This document shows, piece after piece, positions 9,001 to 12,000 of a stretch of DNA of 13,248 bases. The position numbers are program-made. Numbering within the stretch: position 1 is the first letter of the stretch; every line of letters starts with the position of its first letter. The DNA comes from a virus (lineage: Duplodnaviria; Heunggongvirae; Uroviricota; Caudoviricetes), in IMG/VR virus record IMGVR_UViG_2529292873_000008; one strand, written 5' to 3'.

Positions 9001-12000
9001 CAAATCGCCCGATAATGGTCTGCGGACGCAGGTAATCAATAAAGTCCTGCGCATATTCCTGATATTCAGACAGGCTGCCTGCCCACTGCGGATCCGTGGT
9101 GGTCCCTGCCCCCACCGCCGATTTCAGGACATGATGCAGACGGCTGTCATCCGGATACTGACGACGGGCCACTTCCAGGGCTTCAGAGCGGACACCTTTA
9201 GCCGCGGCCAGTGATTTGGCAAAGCGGGCGAAACCAATCCCCTTATCCAGTTTCTGCTCCACACGGATCACCGGCGCAGAAGCCACCGCGGCCACATTCC
9301 CGTTACCGGCCTGTTTCACCGGCTGCGCCGTGGCGGCCTTACCGGCTTCCAGTTCACGCAGGCGCTTCAGGTGCGCATCCACCTGACGGATTTCCGCTGC
9401 GGTGTTGTCGTAATGCTCTTCCTCCTCCACATCCAGCGTGCGCCCTTCCTCTGCGGCTTTGGTCATGACCTCCTCAAGGGAGGCTGCCAGCGCCGCACGC
9501 TTGTTTTCAAAACTTTTAATCTGTTCGCCAATATTCATTATGGTCTTTTCCTTATGAAAAACGGTTGTTGACTGTGCCGCAGCGCCGGCAGAAGATGCGA
9601 TTTTCACCACCGGTTTCCGGTTGCCGGACGCGGCAGAAAACGGGCGGTCGTAAGATTTAATGGTCCGGATGGTGCATTCCGCATTCGCGGGCACGGTGAC
9701 GGCAGACACCTCCATCAGTTCCCAGCGCAGAAAATGCAGTCCGCCTCCGTCCAGAAAGGTGTATTCATGGGGACGGAAGCCCACGGACAGCCCCCTGACC
9801 AGCCCGGTCTTAATGGCCGCCCAGACCTCATCCAGCCGGGCAGCCAGTTGCGACGGCATATCCGGTACGGGCTTCACCAGTGTTGCCGTGATTTCCAGCC
9901 CTTCGCTGACCCGGCGCACCGTACACTGCCCCACCGGGCGGGAATGGTCATGCTGCCAGAGAAACGGGATCGCACTGCCAAACTCCGCGCCCTCCGGCTC
10001 CAGGATGTCACCATCCCGATCCGGAGAAGGCGTTGACGCAATCCCGGTGATCACCCGTTCATCCTCACTGAAGGATTTCACCGTCAGCAGGGAACAGGCC
10101 CGTTTAAGAGTCACATCAGCCTCCTGAAAATAAAAAAACCGCCGCAGCGGTTCATGATGGTTACAGGGTGAACAGGGTTATATGAAAAAAACCGCATATT
10201 CTTTCTTTTTCGGCTCCGGATTCAGGGACATCAGGGATACCGCATTGAAGAGCGCCATCAGCGGGTCAATTTTCCCCCGTCCACTGGCCTGTTTGGTGAT
10301 AAGATTGCGTTACCTTTAGGCTCCACCCGGGCATTGCCGACGCACCAGGCCATCAGGGGCTGGTCACCATGCACCAGTACTCCCTCAGCCAGTTTGCGCT
10401 CGGTGGTTTTAATGGCCCCGCCCAGTTTCCAGCCCTGGCTTATCCCCACCACAATTCCGTCGGGGATCCCGGCTTCCGCCAGTGAATCCAGAATCTGCCC
10501 CACACCTGACGGGTCAATACCGATATGCTCCAGTAACTCAGCCTCATGAATACGACGCACATACTTCCGCCACTTCCGCCGTGTCATCCCCGACCCGACG
10601 GACAATCGTCATGTCTCCACAGGCCACAAGATCCTGAAAACGGGATGCCTCACTCTTCCGTCTGACCACCGCGGTTTCATGCGCCCAGGCATGGCCCCAG
10701 CCCAGCCATTCGCGGGTCTCCCGGTCACGCCCAATCACATACATCCCCAGCAGATCATCCAGCCCTCCGCCGTCAATCCCCACCGTCACCACATCAGCGC
10801 GCTGCAGGATATCGTCCAGGCTGACGCGCCTGCCCTGCTCTTCCCAGAAATCAGCACCCGCCCAGCGGTCAGAACGCAGGGCAAGACCAATTTCCACATT
10901 GGCGTGTTTTGACATGAAGCCACGGAATGTCTCTTCACCGGCTTCCCGGGCTTTACGGTACTCCCGGTACAGAAAGGCCTCATCCACTGAATAGCCGAGA
11001 TTCGGATTGACCATGGCGAGGTTTTCCATCAGCAGGTTAGCCCCGCTTTCCACCATTTCAGGAGGGTGTTCAAATATCACCGGCAGAAAGTGCGGATCAT
11101 GAATTTTGCCGTCGCGCACATCCCGGGCGTACTGCAGTTTCTGTCTGAACACCCCGGCGGGCGGTTCATTCGACTGGGTGGTCGTATACACCACAAACCC
11201 TTCCGGGCGGGAGGCAAGGCCGCCTATGGCTTCACGTAACATGTCCTCCGCCTTGCACTGCTTGCCAAACAGCCACAACTCATCAATCAGCGTACCCACG
11301 GACTTGATACCGGACACCGTATTCGGATCGGCTGCCACCACCTTCAGGGTGGTGTCCGTCACCCGGTGGGTGATGGTCCGGATATGGGTCTGTACCTGGC
11401 AGAGGTCATCCAGATCATCGTCCCGTCGTACCATATCCCGGGCAGGGTTGAAGGCGTTAGCCGCCACCTCCACGGTCGGGGCCAGAATGGTGTAGCCCGC
11501 CGCCTGCCGCCAGTTCAGTAACAGCGCCGTCATCATGATCCCCGCGGCCAGCGTGGACTTGCTGTTTTTCTTGGGGATAAGGATAAAAACTTCCTTGATA
11601 TGGCGTACACCGGTCTGCGCATCGTAGGAGCCAAACAGGGCCGCCACCAGGTCAAACACCCACGGTGCACAGGACTCCCCGAACGTCGGGCTACCCGGTG
11701 CATCCACAATCCGCAGTTGTTTAAAAATCGCCAGGGCATGTGCGGCCTGTCCGGATAAATCGGAGCCGGAATAATCGACAGCCCCTTTTTCAGGCGCTCT
11801 GCCCAGTCCGGGCAGGCCGTGCTCCACACAGGTATCATCCGTTGCCCTCATTATCATTATTCACCACCAGGCGGGGTGGTGGTGGCACCGCAAAACGGTT
11901 AGCCGCTTTTTTCGCCGCGTCACCTTTTGCCGATTTTTTACCGGCATCCCCTTTTTTGTGGTGCGTGAACTGCGCCAGCTTATAAGCCGCATCCAGCGCC

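Follow-up and report, generated by a model that had tools for sequence, protein, structure and literature searches.

The gene for the large terminase subunit (TerL) in the prophage sequence analysed here, 13,248 nucleotides in full and referred to below as the window, is interrupted by a frame change that we consider, with a probability of about 0.8, to be a consensus artefact of collapsed paralogous prophages rather than a property of the phage gene. The contig holds at least six single-base frame breaks in coding sequence, three of them in TerL (Table 1). Because these indels lie at sites where paralogous copies of the prophage differ, they are best read as errors of consensus or assembly and not as a signal of mutation or recoding. 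The frame change is an ordinary one and probably not biological.

Table 1. The TerL gene and the single-base frame breaks of the window, with the state of the aligned relatives
Feature	Position	Strand	Description
Whole TerL coding region	10178..11838	-	1661 nt; collinear with intact 1662-nt, 553-aa genes; four frame segments, three 1-nt indels
Surplus base in TerL	10564..10566	-	GAAG against Glu codon GAG (58 relatives) or GAA (2)
TGA stop closing the 437-aa ORF	10544..10546	-	out-of-frame tail VCASYS before the stop, product of the surplus base
Second TerL break, one base missing at the codon 30/31 boundary	11748..11750	-	-1 relative to 56/56 relatives
Third TerL break, third base of an Ile codon missing	10303..10304	-	-1 relative to 59/59 relatives
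Protease-capsid fusion, 1-nt deletion	8714..8715	-	-1 relative to 48/48; tri-allelic column
terS, 1-nt deletion	12320..12321	-	-1 relative to 49/50; tri-allelic column (G 36, A 13, T 2)
Portal gene, 1-nt deletion	5820..5823	-	-1 relative to 31/32; polymorphic column, CTG[C/T]GG or TAC[C]GG

The minus strand of the window encodes a prophage late operon of lambdoid, Stx-phage-like type, with its genes in the order HNH, terS, terL, protease-capsid, a small ORF, portal, connector genes and tail genes. TerL thus stands in a head-morphogenesis operon, adjoining terS and with the portal gene nearby. A 437-aa ORF on this strand (10544-11857) stops at the TGA after '...VGDDTAEVAEVCASYS', and TerL resumes in another frame, within the ORF 10258-10605, as '...YVRRIHEAELLEHIGIDPSG...'. 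TerL itself begins with the ATG at 11838 (MIPVWSTACPDWAERLKK...); the break near 11749 therefore makes the first ~36 residues of the 437-aa ORF an out-of-frame read-through. At the other end, the true C-terminus (...ITKQASGRGKIDPLMALFNAVSLMSLNPEPKKKEYAVFFI, followed by the stop) extends to 10178 in a third reading-frame segment. The gene calls of the source record place no product over TerL, and the product of the 437-aa ORF is not on record.

That the sequence derives from a large terminase gene, as the earlier note had proposed, is borne out by Pfam and by its collinearity with intact 553-aa genes. TerL_ATPase (PF03354) matches residues 63-224 of the repaired protein with E = 2.1e-11 (1.4e-11 for the 437-aa fragment), and a P-loop-like PKKNSKST can be read at residues 88-95. 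TerL_nuclease (PF20441) matches residues 276-535 of the repaired protein with 37.6 bits, the cut-off being 24; as written, the nuclease domain lies in three pieces, of which the 115-aa piece alone scores 21.9 bits and falls under that cut-off. An uninterrupted ORF of ~550 aa with both domains does not occur in the window, its frame being broken by the three 1-nt indels. The window copy is 97.8% identical to the uninterrupted TerL gene of strain 493/89 (E. coli O157), and indels separate the two at three columns only. Repair of these three restores a 553-aa protein with 6 amino acid differences from the 493/89 TerL, and the 37 nucleotide differences behind them are mostly synonymous, a ratio that is a signature of purifying selection. 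TerL carries at most one private substitution, and the repaired 553-aa protein has no exact match among ~15 billion sequences. The sequence is a TerL gene by descent that, in its written form, encodes no intact TerL.

Alignment of both fragments to intact homologues, the check put forward in the earlier note, placed the junction precisely. The interval 10547-10608, within which one extra base had been postulated, does hold exactly one surplus base when aligned with the intact 1662-nt TerL (+1 relative to 59/59 relatives). The base lies at 10564-10566, however, and not in the minus-strand GGGG run at 10588-10591 that had been favoured as the slip site, 22-27 nt upstream of it. This run is unchanged relative to the relatives and was rejected as the site: its plus-strand CCCC is the same in 53/53 aligned sequences, window included, of which 51 (again with the window) carry TCATCCCCGACCC on the plus strand and the remaining 2 differ outside the G4 run only. 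At the junction the window's plus strand is ACATA-C-T-T-CC, where 58 relatives show ACATA-C-T-CC and 2 show ACATA-T-T-CC; the minus-strand reading GCG GAAG TAT of the window corresponds to GCG GAG TAT or GCG GAA TAT in the relatives. Both natural alleles of a synonymous GAG/GAA site hence stand in tandem, the GAA allele required at 10566 being rare in the panel (2/60). The break falls at TerL residue ~438, inside the nuclease domain (residues 276-535).

The junction as written is peculiar to this sequence. A 41-mer across it had 0 matches in GTDB species representatives, IMG/VR and JGI metagenomes, and a 71-mer compared with closed E. coli genomes (2,922 places) found no perfect match in any record, the best place reaching at most 70/71; the corresponding 40-mer without the extra base is present in 57 viral contigs. 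A naturally split terminase would end near VGDDTAEV and be followed by a small gene of its own, an arrangement shown by none of the homologues that were listed or inspected. Of the 120 best among 7,994 scoring homologues, nearly all have a single ORF of 551-557 aa, with identities as low as 71%; the four shorter homologues that were read are internal-deletion or truncated forms, continuous through '...VGDDTAEVAEYVRRIHEAELL...'.

On these alignments the frame change at 10564-10566 is not an isolated homopolymer slip. The extra base proposed for TerL is not its sole break, since two further breaks exist in the gene. Next to 11749, the window has GAC-AG where the relatives have GAC GAG, GAC CAG, GAT CAG or GAG CAG, which makes two adjacent polymorphic columns. 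At 10303/10304 it has AT-CTT, against ATT CTT in 41 relatives and ATC CTT in 18; a private substitution lies 2 nt from this break and gives a GCA Ala codon (10306), and a natural GCA-Ala allele that would account for it was not found in viral contigs. Moreover, single-base deletions occur in three other late genes. The column at 8714..8715 holds C 25, G 18 and A 5 on the plus strand, and its loss splits a protease-capsid product of ~645 aa into ORFs of 480 and 177 aa, while the portal deletion sits within a 162-nt tandem array. All six indels are private to the contig, having no counterpart in the relatives examined (31-59 per site). Over 6402-13248 there are five private indels and, in the pile-up, 0 private substitutions, or 1 (that at 10306) after correct gap placement. 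A 7-nt deletion was also seen in the tape-measure gene, at a place with no known polymorphic site, as were intergenic length differences in A or T runs at 3747 and 12653.

Central to the argument is the position of these indels. Each of the six coding 1-nt indels coincides with a column at which the relatives vary, and two of these columns are tri-allelic. For the background, the figures are 13.8% for polymorphic columns, 1.0% for tri-allelic ones and 25% for adjacent pairs with at least one polymorphic member. The probability of such a coincidence is ~7e-6, or 2.7e-4 when the ambiguity of gap placement is allowed for. Further, copies within one genome differ at some of the six sites. A toy simulation of flow averaging, fed with the alleles of the relatives only, reproduced the local sequence of the window at 5/6 sites; at 10566, a 50:50 mix of the alleles gives the sequence of the window, and at 10303/10304 the simple model does not reproduce it.

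The origin of the sequence agrees with the mixing of copies. The window is the entire contig AETZ01000077.1 (GCA_000187325.3) of the E. coli O157:H- strain H2687, whose draft genome dates from 2011, and the frameshifted 480-aa capsid fragment is recorded solely on ncbi:GCA_000187325.3:AETZ01000077.1, 13,248 bp and identical to the window. AETZ00000000 corresponds to the SF O157 strain H2687, of clonal complex A4, which it shares with 493-89 (PMC3271280), and the lambdoid prophages of O157 are so alike that draft assemblies fragment inside them (PMC7175801). The TerL region is found at up to 7 places per closed E. coli genome and at 6 in the close relative 493/89 (NZ_CP038412.1), and parts of the window at up to 30 places per genome. 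The element is therefore multi-copy and near-identical in the source lineage, as 493/89 of the same clonal complex attests, and the errors are located where its copies differ (6/6). Against closed E. coli genomes the window reaches an identity of 97.8% at best over 1.8 kb and of no more than 98.6% over 442 nt; phage YYZ-2008, taken as a control over the same stretch, finds 100% matches there. A leave-one-out mosaic count on a small panel gave 17 segments for the window and 26, 30 and 17 for the genuine sequences L002, L032 and L018, and so did not set the window apart.

We infer that a mixture of paralogous reads, followed by a consensus step, gave rise to the indels. The several lambdoid prophages of an O157 genome share 95-99% identity in their late operons, and reads from these near-identical copies may have been piled into a single draft contig. 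A column without a majority allele would then have received no base, leaving a 1-nt deletion, and a differing column at which both alleles were called would have become a 1-nt insertion. At 10564-10566, GAG and GAA would both have been written, as GAAG, producing the +1 shift and the stop at 10544-10546; the same process could have removed the base next to 11749, that at 10303/10304 and those in the terS, capsid and portal genes. Signal averaging in flow space by 454/Newbler may lie behind this, the H2687 genome having presumably been pyrosequenced. Counted against this reading are the rare GAA allele, the misfit at 10303/10304 with its private substitution, the 7-nt deletion in the tape-measure gene and the mosaic count, as well as the fact that O157 genomes do carry genuinely defective prophages.

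This last fact is what lends some weight to an unlikely alternative, namely that the gene is a genuine pseudogene and the H2687 prophage truly defective and in decay, small indels having inactivated each of terS, terL and the capsid, portal and tape-measure genes, with the +1 at 10564-10566 as a true mutation. Defective prophages are common in O157, and closed genomes hold truncated or IS629-interrupted TerL copies (H44, for example, is annotated as a pseudogene, and H109 and H129 as 'terminase large subunit domain-containing protein') besides the internal-deletion products P0095, P0073 and P0120; the absence of a called product over TerL in the source record might be expected either of a pseudogene or of a gene left uncalled. 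However, random mutation does not account for indels that lie on inter-copy polymorphic columns in 6/6 cases (P ~3e-4 or less). Spontaneous substitutions in E. coli are about tenfold commoner than indels, yet at most one private substitution stands beside five private indels in 6.8 kb, and such substitutions as are present are mostly synonymous. Moreover, to accumulate six or more frameshifts takes time, and a prophage of that age should occur in clonal relatives too, but no such indel allele is found in 493/89 of the same complex or in any other closed genome, and the underlying haplotype lacks a match even over 442 nt. In a related scenario that we regard as very improbable, H2687 truly carries this set of alleles, the frameshifts having arisen at mismatches during recombination or gene conversion between resident paralogous prophages. 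If true, it would mean that heteroduplex repair is error-prone here and knocks out late genes of prophages at sites that are polymorphic between copies.

The earlier note implicitly assumed random sequencing errors, such as low-coverage homopolymer miscalls, in a prophage present once and assembled correctly, with no part played by the collapse of repeats; we hold this model to be improbable. The assembly is a draft of 2011, most of the indels amount to a change in run length from 1 to 2 or from 2 to 1, and the intergenic differences at 3747 and 12653 do lie in A or T runs. Nevertheless, the real homopolymer nearby (GGGG at 10588-10591) is intact, and random error does not predict coding indels in runs of 1-2 bases on polymorphic columns; it also leaves the fine-scale mosaic haplotype, for which no match was found, unexplained. 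Programmed ribosomal frameshifting, or a truly split terminase with its ATPase and nuclease separate or recoded, is excluded for practical purposes, the site being unconserved, the motif absent and a single shift insufficient. The overlap of the two ORFs by ~60 nt (10544-10605) is only superficially recoding-like, although a true programmed -1 site does exist in the tail chaperone genes of the window. The overlap has no counterpart in 59/59 relatives and no perfect match in closed genomes, and the homologues that were listed or read continue through this point as one ORF. Neither a slippery heptamer nor a +1 motif that restores the native sequence is present at 10544-10611 on the minus strand: the junction mRNA, GCG GAA GUA UGU GCG UCG UAU UCA UGA, contains no X_XXY_YYZ heptamer and no shift that would restore ...AEYVRRIHE.... 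Synthesis of the full TerL would call for three shifts in two directions (-1, +1 and -1 in DNA terms), and the break at ~438 is inside the nuclease domain rather than between the domains.

The collapse of paralogous prophages into one consensus, which we favour, has little biological consequence, given that TerL in this family of prophages is familiar and occurs in intact form in thousands of genomes. It does call for caution, as a prophage contig that stands alone in a draft EHEC assembly can be a chimeric consensus. 'Pseudogenes', 'split terminases' and apparent recoding sites on such contigs should not be treated as candidates for prophage decay or frameshifting without read-level support. 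A cheap computational screen for artefacts of this kind could be to look for private 1-nt indels on columns polymorphic between paralogues, at which the alleles appear either both in tandem or not at all.

Finally, the sequence may be set against systems already described. Its nearest counterpart is the HK97-like head-module TerL of O157 lambdoid and Stx prophages (for example WP_096911981.1 of 493/89 and YP_002274187.1 of phage YYZ-2008, genus Pankowvirus), with which it shares 95.8-97.8% nucleotide identity over the whole gene, a length of 553 aa after repair, the same Pfam domains and the same neighbours (HNH endonuclease, terS, terL, protease-capsid fusion and portal). Unlike these, the copy in the window encodes no full-length product, owing to the +1 at 10564-10566 and the two -1 breaks, next to 11749 and at 10303/10304; nor was its combination of substitutions found in any closed genome or in the protein collection searched. 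With the defective TerL genes of O157, IS629-interrupted or internally deleted, it shares a non-functional state as written and a strain background rich in defective prophages; those encountered here, however, carry IS insertions or in-frame internal deletions common to many genomes, whereas the window has private single-base indels at polymorphic columns. The -1 frameshift of the lambda G/GT-type tail chaperone is similar in that two ORFs of a late phage operon overlap in different frames. At the window's own G/GT site, though, the end of the upstream ORF carries the canonical heptamer A_AAA_AAG (2592-2586), while the TerL junction is unconserved and bears no such signal.

Consensus errors in collapsed repeats, by comparison, are familiar from the lambdoid prophages of EHEC O157. 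Although the case of the window rests on sequence comparison, with flow-space averaging suggested by a toy simulation only, it resembles the collapsed repeats of EHEC O157 drafts in being a short stand-alone contig that covers the conserved late operon only, in deriving from a multi-copy element, in having its indels where the copies differ and in presenting a haplotype that matches no real copy.

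The terL frame change is real in the deposited sequence and lies within the interval 10547-10608, where an earlier note had placed it: a 437-aa ORF ends and the terminase large subunit (TerL) resumes in another frame. The GGGG run favoured there as the site (10588-10591) is the same in all aligned relatives. Alignment to intact TerL puts the junction at 10564-10566 instead and uncovers two further indels in terL, and the earlier picture was hence misplaced as to site and incomplete. Intact, annotated terminase large subunit genes of 1662 nt (553 aa) match the region at 95.8-97.8% identity; over 1,250 closed E. 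coli genomes and 93 phage records contain them, for the most part O157:H7 and Stx-converting phages. Against the best intact TerL, the three indels are the only length changes. With the surplus base, the minus-strand codons GCG GAG TAT GTG (A E Y V) become GCG GAAG TAT GTG, which changes the frame at residue ~438, within the nuclease domain. With the three indels corrected, the gene encodes 553 aa and both domains, TerL_ATPase and TerL_nuclease; the protein's true C-terminus reaches 10178. Read-through in the wrong frame accounts for the initial ~36 residues of the 437-aa ORF.

The minus strand of the window encodes a lambdoid prophage late operon whose head module is HK97-like, in the order HNH endonuclease, terS, terL, prohead protease-capsid fusion, a small ORF, portal, connector and tail genes, and lastly an incomplete tape-measure gene, which extends past the contig end. 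An HNH gene immediately upstream of terS and terL is the usual layout of HK97-like cos-packaging modules. The portal gene carries a 162-nt (54-codon) tandem array at 5686-6388 (4.3 copies, 94% identity), the copy number of which differs from relative to relative: L003, the one that best matches the whole window, has one unit fewer. How many repeats a collapsed contig shows is in itself uncertain.

Features of the operon and frame-breaking changes, with the alleles of relatives (counts in brackets)
Feature	Position	Strand	Remarks
HNH endonuclease gene	12686-13051	minus	121 aa, seemingly intact; weak Pfam HNH match in source record
terS, 1-nt deletion	12320/12321	minus	private; multi-allelic column 12321, relatives G (36), A (13), T (2), window none; 209-aa 'terS' ORF with false N-terminus
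True TerL start	ATG at 11838	minus	MIPVWSTACPDWAERLKK...
ORF of 437 aa	10544-11857	minus	ends '...RRVGDDTAEVAEVCASYS' and stop
terL, missing base	next to 11749	minus	alignment to best intact TerL; two adjacent variable columns, relatives GG, CG, GA, GC, window one G
terL, surplus base	10564-10566	minus	alignment to best intact TerL; at 10566 relatives C (58), T (2), window both, C then T
terL, missing base	between 10303 and 10304	minus	alignment to best intact TerL; Ile codon third position, relatives T (41), C (18), window neither
ORF carrying TerL onward in other frame	10258-10605	minus	'...YVRRIHEAELLEHIGIDPSGVGQ...'
Capsid-protease fusion, 1-nt deletion	8714/8715	minus	private; multi-allelic column 8715, relatives C (25), G (18), A (5), window none; apparent ORFs 480 + 177 aa
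Portal, 1-nt deletion	near 5822	minus	private; relatives C or T, window none; apparent ORFs 735 + 188 aa
Tail assembly chaperone ORFs	2583-3005 and 2278-2559	minus	downstream Phage_tail_T ORF in -1 frame
Slippery heptamer A_AAA_AAG	2586-2592	minus	gene ends ...AGA AAA AAG TAG; heptamer directly before stop
Tape-measure, 7-nt deletion	near 512 (~505-515)	minus	CGCCTGC/CTGCCGC lost between short CTGC direct repeats; gene split

Judged from its homologues, a split TerL does not appear natural in this family. Among the best 120 of 7,994 scoring homologues, which reach down to 71% identity and come from Salmonella, Citrobacter, Proteus and Arsenophonus among others, nearly all consist of one ORF of 551-557 aa. 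The four shorter products inspected are internal-deletion or truncated forms, uninterrupted across '...VGDDTAEVAEYVRRIHEAELL...', and none of the matches listed or inspected truly ends at the break with a separate small gene following.

It is most likely (probability about 0.8) that the frame change is a consensus artefact from paralogous prophages collapsed in a draft assembly; it is not a new biological feature. Compared with L003 and a panel of 60 related loci, five window genes carry private frame-breaking indels, and the apparent capsid, terS and portal ORFs would be products of the same artefact as the terL break. The six single-base indels are each missing from 31-59 relatives. The junction with its extra base has no perfect match at 2,922 places in closed E. 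coli records (best 70/71), nor any match in GTDB representatives, IMG/VR or JGI metagenomes, while the junction minus that base is present in 57 viral contigs. The tape-measure deletion differs from all five relatives covering the site and, unlike the 1-nt indels, does not sit at a known polymorphic column, being a different kind of change. The intergenic A-run at 3747 and T-run at 12653 also differ in length from L003; these lengths vary among relatives too and are therefore not private and uninformative.

All six single-base indels fall on columns at which related prophage copies differ, some of them even between copies inside one genome. Polymorphic columns make up 13.8% of the panel and tri-allelic ones 1.0%; if ambiguity in placing the gaps is allowed for, the background rises to 25% (adjacent column pairs with a polymorphic member), so that six of six has a probability between about 7e-6 and 2.7e-4. 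Neither random mutation nor random sequencing error accounts for this coincidence, which a consensus of mixed paralogous reads would explain. Where no allele holds a majority, such a consensus would call no base, giving a 1-nt deletion; where two alleles are balanced, both could be called, giving a 1-nt insertion. A toy simulation of flow-signal averaging, with alleles from relatives only, regained five of the six local sequences, including that at 10566 from a 50:50 mix of GAG and GAA, the latter rare in the panel (2/60 at this Glu codon). The simple model did not regain the 10303/10304 site, where a private substitution lies 2 nt away at 10306 (minus-strand Ala codon GCA, GCC or GCT in relatives; the GCA allele was not found in viral contigs). 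The H2687 genome was presumably pyrosequenced and, on that assumption, flow averaging could have sufficed as the mechanism.

The source of the contig is in keeping with collapsed paralogues. Only one contig, AETZ01000077.1 (GCA_000187325.3), is recorded with the frameshifted 480-aa capsid fragment; it is 13,248 bp long, identical to the window, and lists no called terL product. It belongs to the draft genome AETZ00000000 of the sorbitol-fermenting O157 strain H2687, of clonal complex A4, as is strain 493-89 (PMC3271280), and O157 drafts fragment within prophages because lambdoid prophages are so alike (PMC7175801). Closed genomes hold up to seven copies of the TerL region, 493/89 holding six.

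A genuine pseudogene in a decaying O157 prophage would be biologically reasonable, given that truncated and IS629-interrupted copies exist in O157, and is nevertheless unlikely, as it explains neither the indels on polymorphic columns nor their absence from the clonal relative 493/89. Real gene decay would bring many more substitutions than indels; across 6402-13248, five private indels stand against no private substitutions in the pile-up, or one (10306) after correct gap placement, a lack that decay leaves unexplained. The repaired TerL differs from a 493/89 copy by 37 substitutions with only 6 amino-acid changes, which indicates evolution under constraint. Nor does decay explain the unmatched haplotype, a fine-scale patchwork of panel haplotypes that reaches only 98.6% identity to its closest match in 2,955 closed-genome copies, even over 442 nt, whereas the same stretch of YYZ-2008, a genuine phage with this TerL type, finds 100% matches. 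The repaired protein was not found among about 15 billion sequences. By a leave-one-out breakpoint count on a small panel, some genuine sequences were not distinguishable from the window, and the count was given no weight. Random miscalls in reads of a single-copy region are highly improbable as the cause and would give no reason for indels to sit on polymorphic columns.

Programmed frameshifting at the terL junction is, for practical purposes, excluded: the break lies inside a domain, and three shifts would be needed for a full TerL. The same contig holds a genuine recoding site for comparison, namely the conserved lambda G/GT-type programmed -1 frameshift of the tail chaperone genes. While that site bears the canonical, conserved A_AAA_AAG heptamer, the terL junction has neither a slippery motif nor conservation.
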